From a virus (lineage: Duplodnaviria > Heunggongvirae > Uroviricota > Caudoviricetes), in IMG/VR virus record IMGVR_UViG_2541047882_000002, positions 1 to 11,987 of that record: 11,987 bases of DNA; one strand, 5' to 3'. Below the pieces are notes generated by a model, which saw nothing but the letters and a program-made list of their open reading frames with translations, made no database searches and was not told where the DNA came from. Of the stretch, positions 1-11,987 are shown one piece after another. Each line of letters starts with the position of its first letter. Position 1 is the stretch's first letter. The translations under genes and the position numbers were made by a program.

Positions 1-510
1 ATGAGCAATAAAACTATTTTCACAGGCACCGACACCAGAGCCGGCACACCAGAAAACAACCCATTCGGCTGGCGGGGAGCGATGAACAGGATTGCGAACA
101 GTGGCTACACGCCGACGTTCTGCGCCGGAATTGCACAGGAACTGGAAGAGCGTGCGCCTGTAAGGTATGTGGTCGCTATGCCCGACGAACAGGGCGGACT
201 GGAAGCGGCTTACTTCTCCACTCTCGACGGAGCTAAGCGTTTCTGCCAGAAGTTTGACTTCCCGTGCTTCTTTGAGTTAAAGCGGCGTGGTGATGCTGAG
301 GACTTCGCATGGATCGCATGTGGTGATGCGTCACCAAAGCAATTTAGCTTTAGCGAGGGGCTGTCAGAGTTCAGCCAGCGCATTCCACTAAGCCAGCTCA
401 GGACATTGCTTGAAGCAGAAGCATCGCCGCTAAAATCAGCCATGACTCAGGCAGCTGCCAGCTTTGCCAGCAACGACGAATCGACCGCAAATGACTACGG
501 TCTGGTCTGA
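1..510 (+). CDS. Hypothetical protein, 169 aa, function not recognised
   Basis: Uninterrupted ORF from ATG at 1 to TGA at 508-510; followed by a hairpin plus T-run at 555-585. Upstream region is outside the window, so the true start and RBS cannot be checked. Confidence 0.55.
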   Translation: MSNKTIFTGTDTRAGTPENNPFGWRGAMNRIANSGYTPTFCAGIAQELEERAPVRYVVAMPDEQGGLEAAYFSTLDGAKRFCQKFDFPCFFELKRRGDAEDFAWIACGDASPKQFSFSEGLSEFSQRIPLSQLRTLLEAEASPLKSAMTQAAASFASNDESTANDYGLV

Positions 511-554
511 ATAAACGCCCCGCATAAAACCGCGTAAAACGCGCTCTGATTAAC

Positions 555-585
555 GCACGGTTCAGGCCGTGCATTTTCATATCTT
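555..585 (+). terminator. Putative rho-independent terminator downstream of the 169 aa gene
   Basis: Stem GCACGG (555-560) / CCGTGC (567-572), 6 nt loop, then ATTTTCATATCTTCT. Confidence 0.4.
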
Positions 586-1140
586 CTCCCGAATCAGCTT
601 TCTGCGTGCCGTTCTGGCGCTGCGTGCACACGCCGCGTAAACGGCGTGACGTAAAACGTGAGGTGACGTAAACCGCGCTACCCCCTCCAACCCGCGGGTT
701 TCGTGTCGAAATGATTTTTCAGTTTTCTGGTGTGAAAAAATGGCGGGCAGGGTGCGCCAGTACTGGGGATTCACACAAATGCAAAATTTCATTCAGTGAA
801 ATTTTTTGCAATTTTTCTTCCCGATTTTCAGTTCTGTTTTTGTGCTGCGCGTGAGTATTTTCATGATATTTAAGGCTTTTTAATACTTTACGTGAGGCTG
901 TTTTCCCTGATGGCAGAATTTCACGCCCGGCAGCATTTCGCGAAAATCCAGACGTGACGCGCCCTGACGGCAGACAGTGAACAAAATGAAACTGAAAAAA
1001 ACTTCACAACAGGGAGAAGCAGAACGGCGGAAGGGGCGAATAAAACGCAGTGCGATGAGGTGACGTAAAATGCCAGACATGGCGACGTAAAGTAGCGTTG
1101 TGTTGCGGATTTGCGAGTGGTAAAGCGGCGTAGCGGGTGA

Positions 1141-1170
1141 TTGATGCAGGTATGGCAACCAGGCTAGAAT
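1141..1170 (+). promoter_or_regulatory. Candidate sigma70 promoter for the hok-like mRNA
   Basis: TTGATG (1141-1146), 18 bp spacer, TAGAAT (1165-1170). Would give a ~420 nt transcript ending at the 1562-1597 terminator, a typical hok mRNA length. Weak -35 match. Confidence 0.2.
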
Positions 1171-1325
1171 CGCCGCGGGTGCCTTTCGGCTGATGGTCGG
1201 AGGGAATACCCGAAGGCCGGATGTGGAAAGGCCCCGAGTCAACAATTACGTTAACCCGAGGCCCTAACACTTCTTACCTTAGCAAGTAGAAAGGTTAGCG
1301 CCTCCCCGACAAAGGAGCAAGCGCT

Positions 1326-1472
1326 ATGACGCAAATTCCGTTAAAAACCCTGCTACTGTGTTTAACCGCAGTAGCGATAATCTGGATCCTCCACACATCA
1401 CCTTGTGAGTTGCGATTCAGGTTTGCAGGAACGGAAATTGCGGCATTCTTACAATGTAAGTCTACACAGTAA
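1326..1472 (+). CDS. hok: Hok/Gef-family type I toxin, 48 aa small membrane peptide
   Basis: ATG at 1326 preceded by AAGGAG (1312-1317) at 8 nt spacing. Translation MTQIPLKTLLLCLTAVAIIWILHTSPCELRFRFAGTEIAAFLQCKSTQ: hydrophobic N-terminal helix followed by C-E-L-R-F-R...E-I-A-A-F, matching the conserved Hok/HokB C-terminal block as recalled. Below the ORF-track size cutoff. Confidence 0.7.
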   Translation: MTQIPLKTLLLCLTAVAIIWILHTSPCELRFRFAGTEIAAFLQCKSTQ

Positions 1473-1561
1473 GGAACCGCGACGGGGAAGTCAACTTCCC
1501 CGTCAATCGGTTGCCAGGGTAAAGGCCGGAACGGCACCCTATCTGCAGTCATGAACATCAC

Positions 1562-1597
1562 AAACCCGCCGTGTAAAAGCTGCGGGTTTTCTTTTGG
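1562..1597. terminator. Intrinsic terminator ending the hok-like transcript; may also serve the convergent ogr-like gene
   Basis: Stem AAACCCGC (1562-1569) / GCGGGTTT (1582-1589), 12 nt loop, then TCTTTTGG on the plus strand. Lies 10 nt beyond the ogr-like stop on the minus strand. Confidence 0.55.
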
Positions 1598-1606
1598 CTG
1601 GTATCC

Positions 1607-1861
1607 TCAGGCCTGCAGTAGTTCCAGCGCCATTTGCTTTTCCTCCGGGCGCATTCGTTCGATCAACAGCTTCAACACGCCGTTCTCCAGTCCGCTGGGG
1701 GTCAGCGTGTGCGAGTAGGTCAGATTCATTACCCAGGTATGCCCGCACTCAAGACGCTTGCAACGGTAATAAACATCTGCAAAGCGATCATCTTTCCAGA
1801 AGGTCTTCTCAATCACTGCGCGTTCGCCGCAACAAAAACACCGCGCTTTCTGTCTGCGCAC
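1607..1861 (-). CDS. ogr: Ogr/Delta-family zinc-finger late-gene transcriptional activator, 84 aa
   Basis: GTG start at 1861 with AGGAGG 6 nt upstream. Cys spacing C-X2-C-X22-C-X4-C (RCFCCGERA...YYRCKRLEC), the P2 Ogr / P4 Delta zinc-finger pattern. Confidence 0.8.
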   Translation of the reverse strand: MRRQKARCFCCGERAVIEKTFWKDDRFADVYYRCKRLECGHTWVMNLTYSHTLTPSGLENGVLKLLIERMRPEEKQMALELLQA

Positions 1862-2004
1862 TCTGACACCTCCTGAATAAACACGGTTTGCCTGACCTGA
1901 TTTTACCCGTCATCACGGGGGGGTAACAGTCATTTCATTCAGTTTTATTGTGTTGATTTTATGTTGCTGGTCGTACCAGTGATTTTAAGGCTCTCTCTCA
2001 TAAT

Positions 2005-2329
2005 CCGGTGGGGGGTGCGCAAAGCGGTTACAACGGTTACAACCCCAAAAAACGCCACATAACAATATGATTTTAATGGATATTGTTTGTAACCGCTTTG
2101 CGGTTACACTGCGGTTACAACGGTTACAGGTTTCAGAAAGTTATTTATTATCAATCAGTTAAAAACTTAACTTGTAACCGCCTGTAACCTAACAAAACGG
2201 TTACATGTAACCGCGTTGTAACCGCTTTTGTAACTCATCGGACCAGTTGTAATGTGTTGATATATAATATAAAAATAAGTGATTTTAAATTTGTAACCGT
2301 TGTAACCGCTTTGCGCACCCCCCCCCCGG
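2005..2329. repeat. Array of at least 13 GTAACC/GGTTAC hexamers bounded by near-perfect ~38 bp inverted repeats, with an AT-rich segment; candidate attP-like site or replication origin
   Basis: IR-L 2005-2044 (CCGGTGGGGGGTGCGCAAAGCGGTTACAACGGTTACAACC) is the reverse complement of IR-R 2291-2329 except in the G/C run. Further GGTTAC at 2102, 2113, 2122, 2199 and GTAACC at 2089, 2174, 2184, 2207, 2218. AT-rich stretch 2236-2292. Confidence 0.8.
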
Positions 2330-2526
2330 ACTTTAGCGCGACCCTTTAAAATGTTAATTAAACTCACTTACTCTGTATCACTCTCATTAACACTCTGTAA
2401 TTTAAATGTGCCTCGCCACTGTTTGACCCTTTCTGATAATCAGGGGAGGGAGAGCAAAAAAATTGATGACGACACCGCTGCAATATGGCCACCATTGCAT
2501 TGCTGTTACCGTTGGTTCTGGCCAAC

Positions 2527-2551
2527 AAAAAAGGCCAGTGGAAAACTGACC
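2527..2551 (-). terminator. Putative intrinsic terminator after the primase-integrase operon
   Basis: Minus-strand RNA: GGUCAGU / ACUGGCC stem (one G-U pair), 5 nt loop, then UUUUUUGUUGG; about 30 nt downstream of the integrase stop (2582-2584). Confidence 0.45.
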
Positions 2552-2581
2552 TCTTTTGCTGTGAATGTAGCGTTCTGTGGG

Positions 2582-3586
2582 TTACTCTGCTGGCTCTTTT
2601 TCTTCGGTGATCACTATGTTGGCTACCGGGTTAAATCTCATAGCATCTGCCAGATAATCCGGTGCAAAATGTGCGTATGCCATAGTCTGCTGAATTGTCG
2701 CATGCCCAAGGATTTTTTGTAGCGCAAGAATGTTGCCACCGTTCATCACAAAGTGACTGGCGAATGTATGCCGCAATACATGCGCAGCCTGCCCCCTCGG
2801 TAAATCGGGTTTTATTTTTTTTAATGCCCGGCAAAACTCTCTGTACTTCACATCAAACAGTCGCCCGGTTTCTTTTGTTTTTACGGCAGCACATATTTCC
2901 TGCGACACAGGCACCGTTCTTTTTCTACCGTTTTTGGTTTCCAGAAACGTTATTCTATTATGAACTATTTGCTCTCCATACAATCTGCTGGCCTCACTCC
3001 AGCGGGCTCCGGTACAAAGACACAAGAGCGCAACCCTTCGTTGATCTCCATTCAGTCTGTCAAGCAACAATGTGACCTCGTTTTTTGATAAAAAGGCCAT
3101 CTCCCGCTGCTTTACGTAAAGAACAGGAATACCGCGAACAGGATGTTCTGCATCCCACAAACCGATCTTTTTCAGGGCTGTAAACATCCCTGATAATCTG
3201 TTCATATATCTGTTTGCTGAGGACGGCTTTAGCCCTTCCGCAATTTTCTGTGATCGCCATGCAATGATTTTTAATTTGTCGAGCTCTACCGCAAACATGT
3301 CAGCCCCAAGCTCATTAATAATTTTGCCAAGCTGCTGTTTATCCGTATTTGCCTTCCGCCTGTGCTGGCCGTGATAGACCCACCACAATTCCAGTAAATC
3401 GCTAAGCGTTCTCCGGTCGCGATAGCCCTGTATAAACTCGCGCTTTTCGGCGTTCGCTATGATGTACCGTTCAGTTGCTGCAGCTATCGATTTTTTGTCA
3501 AATATTCTTCTGATGCGCTTCCCTTTACGTCCGCATGGCCTGATATCGAGCAGCCACCGCCCATCATGCATCTTTCTGATCGGCAT
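2582..3586 (-). CDS. int: Tyrosine recombinase, P2/186-type phage integrase family, ~334 aa
   Basis: Start refined to ATG at 3586 (MPIRKMHDGRWLLDIRP...) with AAGGAGGGG 8 nt upstream. Contains HVLRHTFAS and LGHATIQQTMAYAHF (catalytic Tyr) and LCLCTGARWSEA. Block-wise resemblance to P2 Int as recalled (DIRPxGRxGKRIRRxFDKK, IKPSSxNR, KAIKPDLPxGQA). Track ORF begins 12 codons earlier at 3622. Confidence 0.85.
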   Translation of the reverse strand: MPIRKMHDGRWLLDIRPCGRKGKRIRRIFDKKSIAAATERYIIANAEKREFIQGYRDRRTLSDLLELWWVYHGQHRRKANTDKQQLGKIINELGADMFAVELDKLKIIAWRSQKIAEGLKPSSANRYMNRLSGMFTALKKIGLWDAEHPVRGIPVLYVKQREMAFLSKNEVTLLLDRLNGDQRRVALLCLCTGARWSEASRLYGEQIVHNRITFLETKNGRKRTVPVSQEICAAVKTKETGRLFDVKYREFCRALKKIKPDLPRGQAAHVLRHTFASHFVMNGGNILALQKILGHATIQQTMAYAHFAPDYLADAMRFNPVANIVITEEKEPAE

Positions 3587-3588
3587 GT

Positions 3589-6258
3589 TTAACGCCCCTC
3601 CTTGTAACTGAATATCCGGCATTTCAGTACTTCCGGCTCTCTGGCCTCGGCGACCCCTCTTCCGGCGTTTGCCTGTCTGGAGACCTCACTACGAATGGTT
3701 TTGCGGCCTGTCAAAGGTCGGGAACGTCCGGCTCCGAGCAACTCAATCATTTCGCGGTCAGTTCGGATCTCCACGCGGTGAATGGCGGCTGCCTGTGCCA
3801 GTTGCGGAATACTGATAGCAATCCCTTCGCGGCATCCCTTGCCGTAGTGGTTTACGCCGTATTTTGTTATGCCGTCCAGGAAGTCGAACGCCTCCCAGAA
3901 CTCCATCATTTCCGGCAAGTCAGCCGCCGCCGCTTTAACCTGTGCTGTTGCCATTTGTTCCAGTTCCAGACATGTGGCATCAAGCCATTCAGCCGGGATA
4001 TCAATAACGCATTTAAGCGCCCTGACCAGCGCGATAAGTTGCGCGTGATTTTTGGCGATACGGGGATGGCGAATATTTTCGCATCCGCAAAGGCGTTCCG
4101 TTTCAGCTGGCGACACTTCCAGGAACGTTTGCATAATCGCCCGTTCCTGACTTACCGCCCGGTGAATAAACCCCGATACCTTCTCTACGGGGTAGAGTTC
4201 CAGCCGTCTCGCCGCCAGTCGGGTATCTGGTGAATGGCGTTTTTTATCGGTGTATATGCGTATCAGGCGCTCAATAATTGCTGGCGAGGCGTTTACCCGC
4301 GCATTCTGCGCAATTACGATAGCGCCCTTAAAATCCGGGTCATAAGTGTTGTTATTGTTGGCCTTAACACCTCGAACGCCGATACCACCGCCGTTATAGA
4401 GGCTTTTCAGGTTATCGAAGTCAAACGCACCTCTTTTTTGCGCATTGTCTCCCCGGTCTGCTTCAATCAGAACAACAGGTAATCCGGCGACCTGTCCAAA
4501 GGTGCGCTTCCAGCCCGCTTCTGATCCTTTGGTTGGATCAACGCCTTCGTAGTTGTCACGACCGCACAGCCGCCAGCAAAAATCAATCAATGTTGATTTG
4601 CCCGTTCCGGGCTCTCCGGTGACTTCAAGGAAAGGGAAGGATTCTTCTTTATCCCGGATTTGTTCACTGAACAGTGACCCAAGCCAGAAAGCCAGGGTAA
4701 TAACTCCTTTTTCACCAAAAGCCAGCCAGAGATCTTCCACCCATGACGCTGTAAATTCATCCGGTTTTTTGTAGTTAATCTGTAATGTGGGTTTTTCGCT
4801 TAATGGTTTTGCGGTTATGCCATCAATTTCAAAATAATCTTCGTCATTGATTTCATAAGTTTTACCCTTGTAAACAGCAATATCATTAAACAACCACGCC
4901 CCAATGGCCTTGTTGTATCCGATAAAATCCTGACCAATAACCTCTTTTATTGCGGGAAGGTCATTTTTTATTAATGCGTCAAGCTGCGTAGTCGTTCCGG
5001 TATAAATGCCGCCTTTTGCTACGTGCAACAGACGTTTTTTAAATTCAGATGAGGATGTTAATTGTCCTGATGTAAAGGTGTTTTTTACCGTAGTGCCATC
5101 CGGGAACGTAACACGGAAGTAATACCATGCTTCATCCGTGTCATTGTTTCGAATGTAATAAAGCGGCACCGGGTTACAGTTTGCGATTTCTTTTACTGCA
5201 CCGGATTCCTTAAGTGCAATTTTTCGCGCTTCATCTTCGTCAACATTTCGCTCATTAATGACACGCTCAACAGCCTTCATATGGCGCTCAATATCCAGCT
5301 TGAACCAGAAAATACGGTTATCAAAGGGAAAATGAAACTCCTTTCGCTCACGAAAGGAAAACATTATTAGTGCCTTATCTCTCGGAGATTTCGCCAGCAA
5401 TAAATCACCGTAATAACGGTATCTTTTCACATCATGGCCACGCAGCTTTCCGGCGATGTGTAAATCATTCCAGTCGCGTTTATTGTTGTTTTTACCTGGC
5501 AACGCCGCTGCCGTTCTCCAGCCGTCTTCGGCGCTGCGTTCTGCATGTTTTTTCGCGTAACGCTCACCTGCACGCCCGTTATCCAGCGCCCACACGATAA
5601 CCGGACGGGGATTATCCCCGCACAGCTTCGCCAGTTCTTCCAGCGCCTTATCAGGGTAGTTCACGGCAGACATGACAGAAACGGCCGCAATGCCATTCTG
5701 GTTAAGGCTGATGGCATCAAAGATACCCTCACAAATCCAGATTTCTTTGGCCTTGCTTAAATCCGCTCCCGGATAAGCCCACCACAGCCCCTTGTAGCTG
5801 CCGGAAAAATTCGCCTTCCGTTCGAAGCGTTCCGGTCGGTCTATGATGCGCTCCCACCACACGCCGTCAGCCAGCGTAAAACGCACAGTAGCAGCCTGTT
5901 CGCCGCTTTCCTTGTCCTGGTATCGCTCCTGAGTAAATGCCCCTTTCAGTGGCTCCACAGCAATATTGCGCGCCTCCTGAAGATAAGCTGCCGCCGCTGC
6001 GTATGGATCGTCTTTCGTGCTGATATAGCGATCTGACCATGACGAAAACACATCCGGGTAAAGTTCTTTGGTCAACAGGTCTGCACCGCATTTATTTTCG
6101 CGGCCACAGTGTACGATGTACGGCCTCTCAAGACTGGTAAACAGTTCCTTCTTTCCACATTGCGGACAAACACCATAGCGAAGATAGTTATTTTCTTCTT
6201 TAAAGTTGTAATCACGAATAAGACGGTTAATAATCTCTTTTCTGGTGTTATGTTTCAT
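3589..6258 (-). CDS. Primase-helicase replication protein (P4 alpha-like), ~889 aa
   Basis: N-terminal Cys cluster (CPQCG...HCGRENKC), TOPRIM-like WICEGIFDAISL, central Walker A GEPGTGKST. Track ORF starts at GTG 6276; ATG at 6258 (MKHNTRKEII) is the more likely start. Stop lies 2 nt before the integrase ATG. Confidence 0.85.
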   Translation of the reverse strand: MKHNTRKEIINRLIRDYNFKEENNYLRYGVCPQCGKKELFTSLERPYIVHCGRENKCGADLLTKELYPDVFSSWSDRYISTKDDPYAAAAAYLQEARNIAVEPLKGAFTQERYQDKESGEQAATVRFTLADGVWWERIIDRPERFERKANFSGSYKGLWWAYPGADLSKAKEIWICEGIFDAISLNQNGIAAVSVMSAVNYPDKALEELAKLCGDNPRPVIVWALDNGRAGERYAKKHAERSAEDGWRTAAALPGKNNNKRDWNDLHIAGKLRGHDVKRYRYYGDLLLAKSPRDKALIMFSFRERKEFHFPFDNRIFWFKLDIERHMKAVERVINERNVDEDEARKIALKESGAVKEIANCNPVPLYYIRNNDTDEAWYYFRVTFPDGTTVKNTFTSGQLTSSSEFKKRLLHVAKGGIYTGTTTQLDALIKNDLPAIKEVIGQDFIGYNKAIGAWLFNDIAVYKGKTYEINDEDYFEIDGITAKPLSEKPTLQINYKKPDEFTASWVEDLWLAFGEKGVITLAFWLGSLFSEQIRDKEESFPFLEVTGEPGTGKSTLIDFCWRLCGRDNYEGVDPTKGSEAGWKRTFGQVAGLPVVLIEADRGDNAQKRGAFDFDNLKSLYNGGGIGVRGVKANNNNTYDPDFKGAIVIAQNARVNASPAIIERLIRIYTDKKRHSPDTRLAARRLELYPVEKVSGFIHRAVSQERAIMQTFLEVSPAETERLCGCENIRHPRIAKNHAQLIALVRALKCVIDIPAEWLDATCLELEQMATAQVKAAAADLPEMMEFWEAFDFLDGITKYGVNHYGKGCREGIAISIPQLAQAAAIHRVEIRTDREMIELLGAGRSRPLTGRKTIRSEVSRQANAGRGVAEAREPEVLKCRIFSYKEGR

Positions 6259-6301
6259 ATATAAATCCCCCCCCACTGCACCTTTTGCAGTGGGGTTTTT
6301 A

Positions 6302-6607
6302 TTAATTACTCGTTACTTCTTGTTTCTGGGCAATCCCTGCGGCTTCAGCTTTGTGCCATGAAAAAATCCCGCCAGAAAGATGCATTCCTGATTTAATCGC
6401 TCGTAATTCCCGATAAAGAATGTTAGTTAATGATTCCATTTCATCGCTTTGTACAGCAATTCGCTCTTTGGTATTGATTTCACCTGTCAATGCTGAAAAA
6501 AGAGCAATAACATTTATTACATCCTCAAGACCGCCAATGGAATCTTCTGTGAAAAAGCCAGCGTATTCTTTTTTGTATATATTGCGGACATTCTGATTTT
6601 CAGACAT
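6302..6607 (-). CDS. Hypothetical small protein, 101 aa
   Basis: ATG at 6607 with GGGGAG about 6 nt upstream; last gene before the primase in a co-oriented cassette. No recognisable motif. Confidence 0.6.
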   Translation of the reverse strand: MSENQNVRNIYKKEYAGFFTEDSIGGLEDVINVIALFSALTGEINTKERIAVQSDEMESLTNILYRELRAIKSGMHLSGGIFSWHKAEAAGIAQKQEVTSN

Positions 6608-6674
6608 AAAAACTCCCCGACCCGTTAAGGCCGAAATATAAATTGAATTCAGTTATCAGTGGATAATTCGGGAA

Positions 6675-6893
6675 TCAGGCGGAAAGCTGTGTCACCTTCA
6701 ACGCCTTGAAATGCGTCATTCCCAGCGCTTCCAGCCCTTCGGCTGCGCGGCGTATGGCTTCGCCCGGCCCCGTTCCGTATACCGTTGCATGTGCATGTTT
6801 GGTTAACCCACGTTTATTAACGGCATAACCCAGCACAAAAAAACGTTTTTCACCACTGCCATTATTTTTACGGGATATTGAACGGCTTTTCAT
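6675..6893 (-). CDS. Hypothetical small protein, 72 aa
   Basis: ATG at 6893 overlaps the TGA stop of the upstream ORF (ATGA overlap), indicating translational coupling. Confidence 0.5.
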   Translation of the reverse strand: MKSRSISRKNNGSGEKRFFVLGYAVNKRGLTKHAHATVYGTGPGEAIRRAAEGLEALGMTHFKALKVTQLSA

Positions 6894-7078
6894 TTCTTCA
6901 CCTTTACCACTGATACTGTGAGTTCTTCTTCTGGCAATTGATATTCCGGCGCAATTTCTTCCGTATACCTGATAGCGTCCCTTGCCGCTTTTCCTTTTGA
7001 TTTATATTTACGTATCGTGTGGAAGTTTTCTTCTTCTCCCGTAATCACATTACGCAATTTAATATGAATCTCGTACAT
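6890..7078 (-). CDS. Hypothetical small protein, 62 aa (MYEIHIKLRNV...)
   Basis: Internal ATG at 7078 of track ORF 6890-7174, with GGAGG 7 nt upstream; abuts the stop of the preceding ORF. Confidence 0.55.
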   Translation of the reverse strand: MYEIHIKLRNVITGEEENFHTIRKYKSKGKAARDAIRYTEEIAPEYQLPEEELTVSVVKVKK

Positions 7079-7080
7079 CG

Positions 7081-7269
7081 TTACCCCTCCATCTCCATAA
7101 TGTTTACCGTGCATTTGTGGGTTAATTTCCCCTGTTTGTTGGCGCGGGTGTACTCCATGCGACGGGCAGCACACAAGGCATCGTCACAGGTCGGGTATTC
7201 CTCAGCATGAACAAACTGGCGAACGTCGCCGTTCTGGCAGTTAATCAGGGTGATAAGGAGCTTAAACAT
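7081..7269 (-). CDS. Hypothetical small protein, 62 aa (MFKLLITLINCQNGDV...)
   Basis: Internal ATG at 7269 of track ORF 7081-7347, with GGGAGG about 7 nt upstream; overlaps the upstream ORF stop by 8 nt. Same length and weak position-wise similarity to the 6890-7078 product. Confidence 0.55.
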   Translation of the reverse strand: MFKLLITLINCQNGDVRQFVHAEEYPTCDDALCAARRMEYTRANKQGKLTHKCTVNIMEMEG

Positions 7270-7435
7270 GGCACGCCTCCCGGACACGAATACGGGCAAC
7301 AAAGACCAGACGGGATGCCGGAAGCAGGGCGCGCGCTTCGCGCTCACTGGCAGCGGTAACGGTATGAAGGCGGATATTTTTACCGTGGCACTGCATAAAG
7401 CGCCAGATAAAATCAGGGCGTGTTGATATAGCCAT
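7262..7435 (-). CDS. Hypothetical small protein, 57 aa (MAISTRPDFIWRF...); may be the C-terminal part of a longer product
   Basis: ATG at 7435 with AAAGGAG at 8 nt spacing. The same frame stays open upstream to 7789 (175 codons), but none of the five upstream in-frame ATGs has a convincing RBS. Confidence 0.4.
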   Translation of the reverse strand: MAISTRPDFIWRFMQCHGKNIRLHTVTAASEREARALLPASRLVFVARIRVREACHV

Positions 7436-7830
7436 TTTGGCGGCTCCTTTGGTTAATTTACGGAGTCTCGCCAGCACGCTGCTAAACATGGTGGCGGGAC
7501 GTAACAGGGTTAGCAGACTGGCACCAAAGAAACCAGCAGGCCTTACGGCCTCCCCATTACGCCCCGCCATAATACGGGAAAGGGTGGTATTACGGGCACA
7601 AAAAAACCGCATTACGGAAATATAGCGGCTACCCGCTTTGGTATTCAGGCTGCTAAACCCGGCACCCGTTTTGTGAGGTGCGGGCAAACGATACGCCATG
7701 ACAAAAAAGCGAGTCAAGCAATATTGCAAATTATTTTTGCGCGATTGCGCTGAGTGATTGATTTCTGTACGTAAAAAGATCATAATCATTCCCGAACTGT
7801 AGATTCATAGCGTTTTCTTTTGCTGATAAG
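7436..7830 (-). promoter_or_regulatory. Leader/regulatory region of the small-gene and primase operon, carrying repeated (C)ATTACGG(A) motifs
   Basis: Motif copies at 7457 (TTTACGGA), 7556 (CATTACGCC), 7589 (ATTACGG), 7610 (CATTACGGA); the same 9-mer recurs at 7869 and 10155. Promoter elements not confidently placed. Confidence 0.3.
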
Positions 7831-7864
7831 CGGCCCGATTTTCCTGCGGGCCGTTTTTCTTATC
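7825..7864. terminator. Strong hairpin between the cargo operon and the small-gene operon; orientation of action ambiguous
   Basis: CGGCCCG (7831-7837) / CGGGCCG (7847-7853) with outer GATAAG / CTTATC. T-run (TTTTTCTT) follows on the plus strand; the minus-strand 3' side is not U-rich. Confidence 0.4.
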
Positions 7865-7870
7865 CAGTCA

Positions 7871-8923
7871 TTACGGATTAAACGTAATCACCCCTTCATC
7901 CACCGCCGCATAAAGATTAACATCCGCCAGTCCATAGCCCTGATGACGCCATGCTCGCATGTTCAGGCGTTTGGTGTTTTCGTTCATGTCGAACTCTGTG
8001 CGGTAAGACCCTTCAATGATGTTAATCAGCAGGTTCGGGAGTGTGGTCACAGCCAGACGTTTACCCGGCATAAACGGCGGCACAAAGGCAAAATGCCCGG
8101 CAATGGTGCTTCCCCATGCGCTGGCGGCTTCGGTATCTCCTGCGCCGTTTGCGGTGCTGAAAAGACGCAGACGTTCGGCAGCTGCAAGTTCTGATCCCAC
8201 CATCACCACAAGGCGTGGATCGTTCTGCCACTGTGCGGGAATTTTCGTTTTAATCAGGTGCTGTGCCAGTGCATCCACCCCCGGAAAATCACCACCTGCG
8301 CCCAGCGTGATGGCCTCGCTGATAATCTGTCGCCCTTCGCTGGCCTTCCTGGCAATTTCATGCCAGCCGGGCGCAACATCCTCGCCGTTCGGGCTGGTGT
8401 CCGGTGTGGTGAAGGTTGCCGCTGACTTGCCGTTAAAGCCAATCCGCAGATCATCCAAGTAAATTTTGCTGGTCAGATAGCCACACAAAATCCCCAGCAG
8501 TGCATCGCGGTTTTTATCGTCATTCGCCACATTGGCCATCACAACCAGGTTAATCCAGTCGAGATATTCGCATGAGTCCATCTCATAGCATTCAATCGGA
8601 GAGCCTTTAATATCCATGGCTCGGCTAAAGCGTCCTTCCTCTGCGCGTCCGGTGGATAAGCGCGCATCACCAATCAGATTAATGGCGGACTGATGCGGAT
8701 TAACTGACAGGTATTTTATTTGCCCGGAGAGCCAGTTAGAGGGTGAAATAAAATGCACAAACGGATTTTTTTGTGTGTATGCGCTGATGCGTGCGTAAAG
8801 CTCTTTTTCTGCAAGCGCGCTATTAATGTCAGTTTCATTTTCGTTCACCGCCGGAGATGAAATATTAATATTTTCAAGCACGCTTCCGGCTTTATCTTTC
8901 AGGTCATTAATATTAAAAAACAT
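7871..8923 (-). CDS. Hypothetical protein, ~350 aa, second gene of the cargo operon; no recognisable domain
   Basis: ATG at 8923 (MFFNINDLKDK...) preceded by AAGGGGAAA; the upstream gene's TAA stop is 10 nt before it. Track ORF starts at 8995 but that would overlap the upstream gene by 62 nt. No Walker A or obvious catalytic signature. Confidence 0.7.
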   Translation of the reverse strand: MFFNINDLKDKAGSVLENINISSPAVNENETDINSALAEKELYARISAYTQKNPFVHFISPSNWLSGQIKYLSVNPHQSAINLIGDARLSTGRAEEGRFSRAMDIKGSPIECYEMDSCEYLDWINLVVMANVANDDKNRDALLGILCGYLTSKIYLDDLRIGFNGKSAATFTTPDTSPNGEDVAPGWHEIARKASEGRQIISEAITLGAGGDFPGVDALAQHLIKTKIPAQWQNDPRLVVMVGSELAAAERLRLFSTANGAGDTEAASAWGSTIAGHFAFVPPFMPGKRLAVTTLPNLLINIIEGSYRTEFDMNENTKRLNMRAWRHQGYGLADVNLYAAVDEGVITFNP

Positions 8924-8933
8924 ACATTTCCCC

Positions 8934-9809
8934 TTAAACAATATCTTTCTTTTCGGTATGTGCAGACAGCAAAGCAGTCGCTGCATCCCGTTCAATTCGT
9001 GGCATACTTATTCCGGTGTATTCCTGTAGCGTCATCGCATGGCGGATGGTTTCACTGCCGTTGCTGTAATAATGCTTCGTCAGAGTACGTAGTGCATCAT
9101 TAATATATTCCTGCCGTAAATGGTTGTATTTAGTCATTACTGAATAAGGAATGTGCTTAATTTCTTCATTACGCAAAGTGACAATAGCACTGACTGCCGA
9201 AATAATCCCCTTATAAAGACTGATGCGGCGCTCTATTTCCCGCTCCAGTCCGTCAAACGAAGCGGCAAAAATCCACGCATTATCGCTATCATGAGAAAGA
9301 TTTTTCCCTGTACCAATAAGGCGTATAGCTTGTTCACAGGCAGCGCGCGTCTTTTCGCAATTCCGTTTCTCATTTTCAAGCAGACGCATTTCATGCTCGA
9401 TAACGTCTTTTACTGAATACCGATCACCATAAGGGTTATCAGCACCCGTGGGCTGTAACGGAGCGTTACGCAATTCGCTGATTTTATTTTCCTGAGCAGT
9501 CACTTTATTTTCTGCTTCGCGGATTTTTTGCCGGATGCGTGTAATGGCAATATCGCAACCTTCCGCAATATCCCGCATCTCTTCATCACTGATTTTATGC
9601 ACTAACGGCAGGCAATACCCTGTAATATCGCAATATTCCTCGGCGTGTCTGTGCATGTATTTTGATGCAATGATATCAATCAGACGAATAACCAAAGAGA
9701 CTTCAGATTGTCCCTTTTGATATACAAAACTACGGGGCCACGATGCAATCGTGGTCATTTCCGGGCAGTTTTTAAAAACCGGAGTAATGTTTTTGATTAA
9801 GGTATTCAT
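8934..9809 (-). CDS. Hypothetical protein, 291 aa, first gene of the cargo operon; no recognisable domain
   Basis: ORF from ATG 9809 with only a weak purine-rich RBS. Charged, probably coiled-coil-rich central region (ENKVTAQENKISELRN..., EHEMRLLENEKRNCEKTRAACEQ). AT-rich: three 60-nt samples gave 47, 32 and 48 percent GC. Confidence 0.7.
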   Translation of the reverse strand: MNTLIKNITPVFKNCPEMTTIASWPRSFVYQKGQSEVSLVIRLIDIIASKYMHRHAEEYCDITGYCLPLVHKISDEEMRDIAEGCDIAITRIRQKIREAENKVTAQENKISELRNAPLQPTGADNPYGDRYSVKDVIEHEMRLLENEKRNCEKTRAACEQAIRLIGTGKNLSHDSDNAWIFAASFDGLEREIERRISLYKGIISAVSAIVTLRNEEIKHIPYSVMTKYNHLRQEYINDALRTLTKHYYSNGSETIRHAMTLQEYTGISMPRIERDAATALLSAHTEKKDIV

Positions 9810-9835
9810 TTTCTATTCTGTGAAGTTCTTAATAT

Positions 9836-9862
9836 CTGAAATATTCAGGCGCGTAGCGCGCC
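9836..9862 (-). terminator. Possible terminator/attenuator between alpA and the cargo operon
   Basis: Perfect palindrome GGCGCGTAGCGCGCC (9848-9862) plus CTGAA/TTCAG hairpin (9836-9848); minus-strand RNA continues UGAAUAUUUCAGAUAUU. Only ~26 nt remain before the gene A start, too little for an independent promoter. Confidence 0.35.
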
Positions 9863-9883
9863 ATGCTGGCTTAATGAAAATAA

Positions 9884-10105
9884 TTAAGCCTGAAAACGTT
9901 GTTGTTTTCTTTCTTCTAACCAATCAATAATTTCCTGCTCTACCCATGCAATTGAGCGAGGGCCAATTCTGATTGGTTTTGGAAAGGCTTCTGATCTTAT
10001 ATCTGCGTAAATTCGCGTTCTTGATTTTCCCGTCATTTCAATAACTTTAGGAAATCGTATTAGCTTTTGTGTCGGCCTGCTGCTGGAATGTGCATGTATT
10101 GACAT
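9884..10105 (-). CDS. alpA: AlpA-family (prophage CP4-57 type) HTH transcriptional regulator, 73 aa
   Basis: ATG at 10105 with AGGAGGG 5 nt upstream. Core LIRFPKVIEMTGKSRTRIYADIRSEAFPKPIRIGPRSIAWVEQEIIDWL matches the AlpA/Vis-type helix-turn-helix as recalled. Confidence 0.85.
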   Translation of the reverse strand: MSIHAHSSSRPTQKLIRFPKVIEMTGKSRTRIYADIRSEAFPKPIRIGPRSIAWVEQEIIDWLEERKQQRFQA

Positions 10106-10634
10106 CTCACCCTCCTGTCTACTCTGATGAGTTTTTTGTGTTAACTATGCAACCCATTACGGAACCTTTTGGTACTTCCTGGTTGCTTACGGCACATCGA
10201 AAATCATAAACAACGAAAAACGGATTTGTAAATCAGGCGGATTTTTAACAGGGGTTGACATAGGCGGTGAGATTTGTTCCATGCGTGATATATCCATCTG
10301 GAACCACTTTAAACCATCTGGAAGCGACAAATAACAACAAGTCAGTGCCAGAAAGGTTTGCTGGCTTACCCCTTAGGCACTAGGAAAGTCCTTTCTGGAC
10401 GGTGTAATGGCTTGCGAACGCTGAAATAGTGGGCTCTGAAAACAAAAAAAATAGTTGGAAGCGTGACACGCGTCAAAAAAATATATCGGTAAAACTGTTT
10501 GATTTTCTAATTTTTATCAAAAGCACTGGTTGTTAATTGAAAATATATTAAAAATCAAATGGATATAGCTGTTTTTGAGGCTAAAAATCACTAGGTGCTT
10601 TTAGTGGTGTCTTATTCTATTGATTTTCAAAGGC
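10106..10634. promoter_or_regulatory. alpA upstream regulatory region: CATTACGGA box, CCATCTGGAA direct repeats, inverted repeats and an AT-rich tract
   Basis: CATTACGGA at 10155-10163 and CTTACGG at 10186; CCATCTGGAA at 10294-10303 and 10314-10323; CCAGAAAGG (10349) / CCTTTCTGG (10390) inverted repeat; AT-rich 10440-10620. No ORF with a credible start. Confidence 0.4.
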
Positions 10635-10668
10635 AAAAAAATCGGCGTGTCCACATATTGTCCACGCC
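10635..10668 (-). terminator. Putative intrinsic terminator downstream of the P4-type integrase
   Basis: Minus-strand RNA: stem GGCGUG / CACGCC (10663-10668 / 10644-10649), 13 nt loop, then GAUUUUUUU (plus-strand A-run 10635-10641). The loop holds a GTCCAC(A) direct repeat. Confidence 0.45.
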
Positions 10669-10724
10669 TTGAGTTTAATTCAGTTTCTTGGGTTAGTTTG
10701 GTTTGTCGAGTTAGCGCCGTTAGT

Positions 10725-11987
10725 TCAGTCTGTTTCGTTGATCCACTTAAAATCATAGGGCGCGACATATGCCGTCTGGCAGGAGTCGAGATAATCAGCC
10801 CACCACTGCAACATCTGGCGACGCTCCTGCATGTGTTCAGCCCTGTGAATGTAAGCAGCACGAACGGTGTTTCTTTCCCTGTGGCTCATCTGGAGCTCGA
10901 CAGCTTCCCTTGTCCATATGCCTGATTCTGTCAGAGCGGAGCAGGCCATAGCCCTGAATCCATGACCGCAAATGTCTTCTTTTGTATCGTATCCTATGTG
11001 GCGTAACGCCTTGTTAATGGTGTTTTCGCTCATGGGCTTTATCTGGTAGTGGTCGCCGGGAAAAATCAACAATTCATCACCTGATATATTCCTTATATCT
11101 TCAAGAAGCTGCATTGCCTGAGTGGATAAAGGGATGGCGTGAGGGGTTCCCATTTTCGTTCCACGATATGAATATTTAACGCCTTCTATTTTTTCGCGCT
11201 CTGCGGGTATTACCCACATTGATTTATCAAAATCAATTTCATTCCATCGGGCAAAACGCAATTCACTTGAGCGAATAAAGACTAATAAATTTAACTTTAG
11301 CGCAAATTGCGTTAATAGCCGCCCGTTCATCTTGTGATGATAATTATCAATTTTTCCCAGCAATTCAGGCAATCGCTCAAGAGGGAGGGCAGGGCGATGA
11401 CGGGTTTTATTGGTTTCTATCGCACCGCCCAACTCCTGCGCTGGGTTGTATTTAATCATTCCGTTCTGGACAGCGTAACGCATGATTGCATTCATTCGCT
11501 GCTTGTTTCGTGATGCCGTCTCAAGTATCCCTTTATCCTCCATTTTGCGTAGAGGTAACAACAGATCCATGGTTGTAATTTCGTTAATTGGCCTTTTGCC
11601 AAGAATGGGGAAGACATGATTCTCCAGGTCTTTTAAAACTTTTTGTGCGTGTAGTTCGCTCCAGCCCTTTTTCCTGCGATGCCATTCTCTGGCGACATCT
11701 TCAAAAAGCACTATTTGGGGTTTTTGTGTGTACAGGGGATCAATGCCTTTAGCCAGACTTGCCAGATATTCATCGCGGGCGTTCCTGGCTTCTGCAAGCG
11801 TGACGGCCGGGTAAATACCCAAAGCGCGAGTTGTTTCTTTGCCGTTGATAACTTTGCGAAAGCGCCAGTATTTTGAGCCATTGGGGTGAACGTAGAGATA
11901 CAGGCCTTTACCGTCACGAAGTTTTTTAATTTTGTTGCTGTCTTTGTCTGGTCTGGCGTTACGCACAGCTAAATCAGTTAGTTTCAT
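10725..11987 (-). CDS. int: P4-type (CP4-57 IntA-like) tyrosine integrase, 420 aa
   Basis: N-terminus MKLTDLAVRNARPDKDSNKIKKLRDGKGLYLYVHPNGSKYWRFR is the typical P4-family arm-binding start; C-terminal HGFRAMACSALTE and LQMSHRERNTVRAAYIHRAEHMQERRQMLQ (catalytic Tyr). Start codon is at the window's last bases. Confidence 0.9.
   Translation of the reverse strand: MKLTDLAVRNARPDKDSNKIKKLRDGKGLYLYVHPNGSKYWRFRKVINGKETTRALGIYPAVTLAEARNARDEYLASLAKGIDPLYTQKPQIVLFEDVAREWHRRKKGWSELHAQKVLKDLENHVFPILGKRPINEITTMDLLLPLRKMEDKGILETASRNKQRMNAIMRYAVQNGMIKYNPAQELGGAIETNKTRHRPALPLERLPELLGKIDNYHHKMNGRLLTQFALKLNLLVFIRSSELRFARWNEIDFDKSMWVIPAEREKIEGVKYSYRGTKMGTPHAIPLSTQAMQLLEDIRNISGDELLIFPGDHYQIKPMSENTINKALRHIGYDTKEDICGHGFRAMACSALTESGIWTREAVELQMSHRERNTVRAAYIHRAEHMQERRQMLQWWADYLDSCQTAYVAPYDFKWINETD

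Follow-up and report, generated by a model that had tools for sequence, protein, structure and literature searches.

A P2-type integrase gene follows the primase gene inside a family of P4-like satellites

Introduction

Phage satellites derepress their helpers, redirect capsid size and hijack packaging, and PLE uses a directionality factor that is encoded by a phage. In the multimer-resolution systems Cre/loxP of P1 and ResD/rfsF of F, a tyrosine recombinase is encoded next to replication functions, and a fixed site in cis is matched to the enzyme. P2 Cox activates PLL of P4 (PMC3936717), and SatelliteFinder assumes one integrase per satellite (PMC10085698). Here we examine a stretch of 11,987 nucleotides (nt) from a tailed-phage-like virus record (IMG/VR IMGVR_UViG_2541047882_000002, positions 1 to 11,987), called the window throughout, which derives from a P4-like satellite and encodes two tyrosine integrases: a P4-type enzyme at the end of the element and a second, P2-type enzyme, Int2, whose gene lies inside the element directly after that of a primase-helicase.

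An internal second integrase goes unmentioned in two large surveys of P4-like elements, in the SatelliteFinder paper and in a 2026 hotspot paper, and our search of the open-access literature found no report of a second or helper-type integrase in satellites. The internal helper-type integrase is a real and conserved feature of a sub-family of P4-like satellites, so far apparently undescribed. Below we set out how int2 is joined to the primase gene, how its specificity domains vary from one satellite to another, and which DNA the enzyme might act on.

Results

The primase and int2 genes meet on the minus strand at a junction that reads TAC AAG GAG GGG CGT TAA ac ATG CCG ATC. The primase stop codon (TAA, 3589-3591) and the Int2 start codon (ATG, 3584-3586) are separated by a 2-nt spacer, and a Shine-Dalgarno (SD) sequence, AAGGAGG at 3597-3603, lies within the last primase codons. 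The canonical N-terminus of P2-type integrases (M-x-I-R/K-K) begins at 3586. An in-frame ATG at 3622 gives a 346-amino-acid (aa) open reading frame (ORF), 12 codons longer, which overlaps the primase 3' end; some database entries adopt such a longer start (P0038, 345 aa), and this masks the 2-nt junction. Among the Escherichia and Yersinia relatives with an intact int2, every junction that we examined is of this type: 12 loci carrying five Int2 alleles, each with a purine-rich SD sequence, the spacing between the two genes being a 2-nt gap, a 7-nt gap or a 4-nt overlap.

A consensus scan of the 3' part of the primase gene detected nothing promoter-like on the minus strand, and just after int2 comes a terminator-like hairpin whose stability was reached by none of 200 shuffled sequences. 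Because of these two observations, int2 is the last gene of a unit that starts near 7700 and runs from a promoter-like site through the isrK and C4 RNAs, the icd-like ORF, four small ORFs, the primase and Int2 to the terminator, which lies just before a block of iterons. The pair also has the features expected of coupled genes, namely a stop and a start close together, an SD sequence inside the upstream gene and neither promoter nor terminator between them. Given the conserved arrangement, the juxtaposition of primase and int2 is not due to chance, co-expression of the two is very likely, and the geometry of the junction suggests that they are translationally coupled. With its ATG 2 nt past the primase stop, Int2 should therefore be made when the replication operon is on. 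The layout of this operon, headed by RNA immunity of P4/P1 type (isrK and C4), resembles what we take to be the immunity-controlled replication operon of P4.

Int2 matches Pfam families PF24624 (Int_N, 84 bits) and PF00589 (Phage_integrase, 69.5 bits), and 96% of its length aligns with P2 Int at 51% identity. Much closer are the integrases of Escherichia phage Chuche, Xuanwuvirus P884B11, PhiR44_2 and Citrobacter phage Shae_phiSM, at 81-82% aa identity; int2 is 74% identical in nucleotide sequence to Xuanwuvirus integrase genes. In an alignment with the integrases of phages Chuche and Shae and with the satellite alleles, the catalytic set R..K..HxxR..H..Y is kept in Int2 (TGARW, TKNGRKR, HVLRH, LGH and AYAHF), and among satellites sharing an Int2 allele the ratio of nonsynonymous to synonymous substitution rates (dN/dS) is 0.05-0.09. 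By these measures Int2 is intact and under strong purifying selection.

These results bear out much of an earlier note on this stretch. The note had placed the primase stop and the integrase ATG 2 nt apart with an SD sequence in the primase 3' end, which is how the DNA reads. Its claim of co-expression is very likely correct, given the conserved junction, the lack of an intervening promoter and the terminator after int2. It had also described two tyrosine recombinases of different families in one island of about 12 kb, together with an Ogr/Delta activator. The Pfam domains confirm both recombinases, each of them intact, and there is a Pfam match for the activator (Table 1). The note had added that an inactive or truncated second recombinase would overturn its account, and on alignment Int2 is intact.

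The Int2 proteins of these satellites fall into distinct alleles, of which there are at least three in E. coli satellites (47-54% identical to each other), a fourth in one further relative (L012 in our numbering of loci), and others in Yersinia and Salmonella. All of them share a satellite-specific C-terminal tail, DYLADAMRFNPVANIVITEEKEPAE and variants of it, which was found in no phage integrase. Comparison of two loci, L005 and L004, shows how the alleles differ: the two satellites are 96-98% identical throughout except for about 790 bp corresponding to window positions 2810-3596. This cassette spans both the arm- and core-binding domains and reaches halfway into the catalytic domain, and in the same comparison no other segment of the satellite co-varies with it. 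In P2-like integrases it is the core-binding domain that sets the specificity of integration (PMC3448106). If specificity changes while the DNA of the element itself stays constant, Int2 would have to act on DNA elsewhere.

Each of three E. coli alleles is closest to the integrase of a different P2-like phage. The allele of the window is closest to Chuche-type integrases (82%), the C25 allele to the P88 integrase (77%) and the TOE17 allele to the vB_EcoM-569R5/705R2 integrase (87%). The record lineages place P88, P884B11 and Shae_phiSM in Xuanwuvirus and vB_EcoM-569R5 in Peduoviridae only, and give none for Chuche. A neighbour-joining tree of the first 258 residues puts integrases with the satellite tail at no fewer than eight separate places among phage integrases; the tail class was assigned in this tree by a simple pattern, which misassigns a few. 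Comparison with the nearest phage allele gives a dN of 0.15 with synonymous sites at saturation, and among the matches of a search of 5.8 billion proteins nothing was 82-95% identical to Int2. Because of this saturation and this gap in identity, the alleles are old, and on the same grounds we reject a recent capture of Int2 from known phages. The shuffling of alleles among satellite backbones is recent, and old alleles are kept as a polymorphism on young backbones.

We then asked where an enzyme of this type could find a site. In phages with an Int2-like integrase, int stands in the usual C-int-attP context, and in Chuche, P88 and 569R5 the 3' end of int itself contains TGTCCA-type arm sites in pairs, the P2-type arm consensus being tgTGGaCa (PMC3448106). 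Such arm pairs are missing from the 3' end of satellite int2 and from the DNA downstream of it. The Chuche-type core derived from a prophage at pdxB is AAAATCCTTGTTGATGAAAA, in the 5' end of that gene, and the P88-type core derived from the prophage of genome E94 is CACCTTCGGGTGGC, between ytfP and ppa; neither is present in the matching satellites. The satellite shares no 12-mer with the Chuche attP, and the intergenic DNA adjoining int2 has no phage match and was found solely inside these satellites. Int2 has the domains and catalytic residues of a P2-family integrase, and the attP that should accompany it downstream is missing; nor is its gene at the end of the element, where the gene of an integrating enzyme belongs.

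The limits of the element are clear from E. coli STEC367 (L001), a stretch of which is 95.6% identical to the whole window. In that genome the csc/dsdA region and tRNA-Arg/yfdC flank the island, and 20-nt direct repeats that correspond to the tRNA-Arg 3' end, TGGTGTCCCCTGCAGGAATC, stand 12.4 kb apart and enclose both integrases. The window has no internal copy of this repeat, even with up to three mismatches, and a search for tRNA genes in it found none. On this alignment the window is almost all of one P4-like satellite of about 12.4 kb, integrated at tRNA-Arg (argW). The same core (primase, Int2, repeats and Ogr, 96.5% identity) sits between hpt and gcd in other E. coli, where the terminal integrase and its regulator differ from those of the window. 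Because relatives with the same core carry another terminal integrase at this other site, the chromosomal site is set by the terminal integrase and not by Int2. Gene order is kept in the Escherichia and Yersinia relatives.

An intact integrase from a family whose members integrate phages, with allelic diversity of the kind typical of integration modules, could be a second integration module, one that inserts the satellite at another site (for example the helper attB) when the primary site is missing or occupied. The map makes this improbable. No phage-type core is present, and the sole arm pair in the window goes with the argW terminal module. At the ten loci for which both flanks were read (L001-L003, L005-L007, L010 and L027-L029, from Escherichia, Yersinia and Salmonella), the element has its own terminal integrase at its end and int2 is internal, and the intergenic DNA beside int2 is confined to these satellites. 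Three more loci (L012-L014) have the same terminal-integrase end and gene order, their far ends being unmapped.

The arm pair just mentioned is a perfect P2-type tandem, GTGTCCACATATTGTCCACG (TGTCCAC-N4-TGTCCAC, 11-bp spacing), at 10648-10665 on the plus strand. It lies in a 620-nt non-coding stretch between the stop codon of the P4-type integrase gene and alpA, contains the only TGTCCAC copies of the window, and is abutted by a single cox-box-like TTAAACTCA at 10670-10678. The pair is kept in all argW-type satellites, including those of Yersinia with diverged flanks and a distant IMG/VR relative that has no Int2 (L022), and is absent from hpt/gcd-type and Salmonella satellites; the window holds no second pair to complete an attP. 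Since it follows the argW-type terminal module whatever the Int2 allele, we did not count it as an Int2 site, and its presence in L022 and absence from hpt/gcd-type satellites led us to reject it in that role. It could be a landing site for the N-domain of a helper-type or Int2-type integrase.

The repeats beside int2 are of another kind. The 9-mer RCGGTTACA occurs 12 times at 2024-2309 and 13 times in the whole window, against 2.8 expected and with no equal in 200 shuffles. Imperfect inverted arms of 60 nt (1983-2042 and 2291-2350) surround an AT-rich centre in a region of 40% GC, and the iterons that fill the 248-bp segment between the arms also make up the arms themselves. The block is present in 66 of 5426 complete E. 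coli genomes and the primase in about 66-70 of them, whatever the Int2 allele. The iteron sequence varies with the primase family, being GTGTAACA in Salmonella and GGGTTACA or AGGTTACA in L012 and L022, and iterons directly follow the primase both in L022 and in Salmonella satellites with another primase. In Salmonella the palindromic iteron block is upstream of Int2, so that the position of the iterons relative to Int2 varies. The block has no similarity to any phage record, and the repeat region remains constant when the Int2 specificity cassette is exchanged. From this pattern the repeats are probably the iterons of a primase origin, to which, as in P4, the primase itself would bind. Runs of C6 and G10 (CCCCCCACCGG at 2003-2017 and CCGGGGGGGGGGTGCGC at 2310-2335) flank the iterons symmetrically and are kept in Yersinia and in L012.

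Two further readings of Int2 turn on this region. A recombinase gene adjoining a segment flanked by inverted repeats might be an inversion switch of the FimB/FimE kind, with Int2 flipping the 248-bp segment between the 60-nt arms and so controlling ogr or the origin. The segment is colinear in all 40 matches listed among the 66 E. coli genomes and in six fetched relatives aligned directly to the window, its arms are the iterons themselves and the Salmonella block lies upstream of Int2, which leaves such a switch exceedingly improbable. Alternatively, Int2 might resolve dimers formed in satellite replication, at a site near the origin, to give monomer circles for maintenance or packaging. Packaging in P2 and P4 uses monomer circles, and Int2 is co-expressed with the primase and encoded beside the origin, before it in Escherichia and Yersinia and after it in Salmonella. 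A resolution site in cis would, however, have to change with the cassette, and therefore the absence of co-varying DNA between satellites that are 96-98% identical and carry cassettes only 47-54% identical counts against resolution. The cassette is moreover collinear with phage int coding sequence, leaving no room for a site, and L022 has the same origin layout in spite of lacking Int2. We think this role distinctly unlikely.

The same data bear on the broader architecture proposed in the earlier note. Its P2-like int-repeat-ogr layout is not supported, the repeats being iterons that follow the primase type, with no attP; because the iterons track primase type and position, we reject the repeats as Int2 sites or as an attP. 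Resolution or inversion at these adjacent repeats likewise found no backing in the colinear alignments or in repeats that stay constant across cassette swaps. The note had also raised the possibility of two tandem elements and had named two separate att-flanked elements, each with its own complete module set, as a finding that would count against its account. One att-flanked element was seen: a single pair of tRNA-Arg repeats encloses both integrases, no internal copy exists and gene order is conserved, so that tandem elements are rejected. What stands of the mosaic reading is its P2-like component (Int2, the hok/sok DNA, Ogr/Delta and the capsid homologue); the tandem-element and adjacent-repeat readings lack support.

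Across relatives, int2 adjoins the primase or the origin in Escherichia, Yersinia and Salmonella satellites and is intact in nearly all of them. The breadth of this distribution comes from protein look-ups, a scan with the primase in a collection of contigs from one genome per species having returned one locus. Salmonella satellites have another primase (Zn_Ribbon_Prim/DUF927), and Int2 is 455 nt downstream of it, after an iteron block. In two Salmonella enterica loci (L010 and L011), Int2 has a related satellite-type tail (..ADAMKFNPVAG..) and is followed by toxin-antitoxin pairs, and a second element with a P4-type integrase stands in tandem directly after the first. In E. coli K_EC180 (L006, 8299-8998), a deletion has taken out the origin block and extends into ogr, leaving a truncated int2 of 208 codons, so the int2 module can decay. 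L022, whose primase is 55% identical to that of the window, has no Int2.

A mosaic element with P2-like pieces, in which int2 is truncated in K_EC180 and lacking in L022, might simply carry Int2 as a passenger or relic, left over from a P2-like ancestor or from past recombination with a phage and without a role. This reading is largely refuted and very improbable, in view of the low dN/dS, the intactness of the gene across three genera, the conserved primase junction, the old alleles maintained on young backbones and the single att-flanked element. Int2 is better seen as an accessory gene, conserved and lodged beside the replication origin.

Prophages whose integrases match the Int2 alleles occur in some of the same genomes. 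A P88-type prophage int (at least 97% nucleotide identity) is present in 30 of the 5426 genomes and in 4 of the 7 that carry the P88-like satellite allele (E92, E94, PEC240 and N50), E92 and E94 being probably clonal; the prophage of E94 is a full-length P88-like phage. Chuche-type int is present in 333 genomes, and among the 60 of these that were listed are five of the 29 genomes with the window allele, against 0.3 expected, although three of the five are clonal. K_EC180, with its truncated int2, has a P2-like prophage at pdxB.

The remaining features of the window are collected in Table 1. Nearly all genes are on the minus strand; the plus strand has the hok/sok-like locus and an ORF of 169 aa (1-510).

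Table 1. Features of the 11,987-nt window, with coordinates, strand and supporting evidence.
Feature	Positions	Strand	Evidence or remark
Terminal P4-type integrase, 420 aa	10725-11987	-	Pfam Arm-DNA-bind_3, Phage_int_M, Phage_integrase; abuts tRNA-Arg in L001
AlpA-family regulator, probable excision factor for the terminal integrase	9884-10105	-	Pfam Phage_AlpA, E = 5e-16
291-aa ORF, no family match	8934-9809	-	Directly precedes the capsid homologue
P2-family major capsid homologue, 350 aa	7871-8923	-	Pfam Phage_cap_P2, 4.8e-43; PHROG 70
isrK-like RNA	7600-7681	-	Rfam RF01394, 53.2 bits, above gathering score
C4 antisense RNA	7487-7574	-	Rfam RF01695, 79.9 bits, above gathering score
'Icd-like' ORF, 175 aa	7262-7789	-	NCBIfam phage_ICD_like; contains the isrK and C4 RNAs
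Promoter-like TTGACT-N18-TATCGT	near 7700	-	Read from the sequence; just upstream of the isrK/C4 RNAs
Four small ORFs, 60-101 aa	6302-7263	-	No Pfam or PHROG match; annotated in relatives
Primase-helicase, 889 aa (ATG at 6258)	3589-6258	-	Zn ribbon, Toprim, P-loop; Pfam Toprim_2/3, weak DUF5906
Int2, P2-family tyrosine integrase, 334 aa	2582-3586	-	Pfam Int_N and Phage_integrase
Exchangeable Int2 cassette, codons 1 to about 259	2810-3596	-	Sole non-homologous segment between near-identical satellites
Constant 3' part of int2: HxxR..H..Y and satellite-specific tail DYLADAMRFNPVANIVITEEKEPAE	2582-2809	-	Alignment
Intrinsic-terminator-like hairpin, 17-bp stem and U tract	2523-2561	-	-25.2 kcal/mol, z = -3.4
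Probable replication origin, iterons	1983-2350	.	12 RCGGTTACA copies, both orientations
Ogr/Delta-type zinc-finger late-gene activator	1607-1861	-	Pfam Ogr_Delta, 2.5e-11
hok/sok-type toxin-antisense locus (hok coding sequence about 1326-1472)	1174-1609	+	Annotated Hok/Gef in relatives

The primase matches PHROG 1139 ('DNA primase') end to end. In P4, epsilon and other helper-manipulating genes occupy the place taken here by the four small ORFs, a likeness of position only, with no homology. As the Rfam matches to isrK and C4 lie inside the 'Icd-like' ORF, the upstream two thirds of that ORF may be RNA genes rather than coding sequence. The order of the 291-aa ORF and the capsid homologue is that of scaffold and capsid in P2, and the homologue is only 24% identical to P88 gpN; together the two genes may be a capsid-redirection module that replaces Sid/Psu. 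Related satellites have a 423-aa capsid homologue and a 236-aa ORF at the other end of the element, beside a MazEF pair. The hok/sok DNA is 76-78% identical to the Xuanwuvirus-type locus of Chuche, P88 and P884B11, which also adjoins ogr, and 74% identical to a locus of many Stx phages. The 660 nt at 510-1170 are non-coding and contain four GGTGACGTAAA-like repeats in two pairs (645-672 and 1059-1091) as well as other short repeats; they resemble no phage record, lack the P2 cos 19-mer and are a candidate packaging (cos) or regulatory region. Int2 had no PADLOC match, and membership of a defence system was rejected.

Discussion

Our data describe a P4-like satellite sub-family in which an intact integrase of helper type closes the replication operon and in which the specificity-determining three quarters of that integrase are exchanged while the rest of the element stays the same. 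A tentative proposal, which we find plausible on comparative grounds, is that Int2 acts in trans on the att sites of a P2-like helper whose integrase type it mirrors. The more specific version that we think likeliest, though still doubtful, is that Int2 serves in trans to excise the resident helper prophage when the satellite replication operon fires. P2 Cox represses Pc, which drives C and int, and is itself the directionality factor of excision (PMC3936717); because of this repression a derepressed helper prophage should be short of integrase. On firing of the operon, Int2 would be made alongside the replication functions and could supply the integrase for excision of the resident helper, working with the helper Cox, and a freed helper genome would be the outcome of this satellite-supplied enzyme. 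The direction of Int2 action, whether excision, integration or blocking, is for now a guess.

Several points weigh against action on a helper. P4 exploits a P2 prophage without excising it, so that a need for helper excision is not self-evident, and contact of Int2 with any DNA is something that we infer. Among the satellites, L022 has the same primase family and no Int2, and for this reason Int2 is accessory and stands outside the replication machinery proper. Between the satellite alleles and the nearest phage integrases the protein divergence is 13-23%, with synonymous sites saturated, and because of that divergence the alleles may recognise sites other than those of these phages. The capsid homologue is 24% identical to P88 gpN, and no similarity to cos was found. 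The co-occurrence rests on few genomes, some of them clonal. In STEC367 and GF60 the window allele goes with an empty pdxB site, and in E. coli STEC308 that site is occupied by an 18.7-kb remnant of a P2-like prophage (L017, about 24540-43280), with int, C, cox, early genes, ParM, some tail genes and a frameshifted replication gene but no head genes. Obligatory co-residence of a Chuche-type pdxB prophage with the window allele is rejected on these three genomes, and many of the 333 matches to Chuche-type int may be remnants of the same kind.

Satellites commonly interfere with their helpers, and the evidence for a trans-acting, helper-matched integrase would serve equally well if Int2 were an instrument of interference, binding the arm or core sites of the helper or mixing with helper Int so as to block or misdirect helper excision or integration. 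For example, a helper kept in the chromosome with its late genes expressed and its genome unpackaged would leave capsids for the satellite. The satellite-specific C-terminal tail, unlike every phage tail, could be read in the same way. We consider interference unlikely, since a mere DNA-binding decoy would not need catalysis and Int2 keeps the full catalytic set under purifying selection. With helper Cox present, extra Int should favour excision over integration (PMC3936717). A simpler explanation for the different tail is that the satellite gene, having lost the arm sites, is free of the constraint that they place on the coding sequence in phages.

If Int2 does act on helper att sites, one might further expect its variation to follow that of helpers. 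It is possible, though doubtful, that the alleles form an old balanced polymorphism of exchangeable specificity cassettes that copies the helper's integrase type. The Int2 allele would then be a simple sequence marker that predicts which prophage a satellite exploits, and satellite control of helper excision or integration would join the known manipulations of helpers. For annotation the consequences are more immediate. Software that expects a single integrase in each satellite, or that takes integrases as the limits of an island, will split or mis-delimit these satellites, and an internal 'phage integrase' should not be taken as the sign of a second prophage.

Of known elements, P4 is the one that these satellites most resemble. 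The element of the window has an integrase at a tRNA gene and direct repeats that bound an element within the range of about 10-15 kb, along with AlpA, a primase-helicase with an iteron origin, a Delta/Ogr activator and an immunity RNA of CI/C4 type, features that it shares with P4 at a similar size of about 12 kb. Sid, Psu and epsilon gave no Pfam or PHROG match in the window, where remote homologues are possible, and the P2 cos 19-mer is absent at up to three mismatches, with no DNA similarity to phage cos regions and no cos-like similarity to P88. The element, then, has most and not all of the features that define P4-like satellites. Unlike P4, it lacks detected Sid, Psu and epsilon, encodes a homologue of the P2-family capsid protein and ends its replication operon with a second, P2-type integrase; its primase is in another family than PF03288, the profile that SatelliteFinder uses for P4 alpha (PMC8628076).

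Compared with the integration modules of P2-like phages, Int2 has the same domains and catalytic residues, 77-87% identity to particular phage integrases and a parallel diversity of alleles, but it stands without attP, arm sites, core or a C or Cox neighbour, away from the end of the element, and its gene is driven from the primase operon, whereas phage int is driven from Pc. Cre/loxP and ResD/rfsF share with it the placement of a recombinase gene beside replication functions; in the satellites, by contrast, the specificity domains of Int2 are swapped while the neighbouring DNA remains constant. The closest parallel to the function that we propose is the cross-talk of P2 Cox with P4 and of PLE with its phage, in which a recombination or regulatory protein of one partner acts on the DNA of the other. 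In both of these the helper's protein acts on the satellite, whereas Int2 would be an integrase of the satellite acting on its helper.

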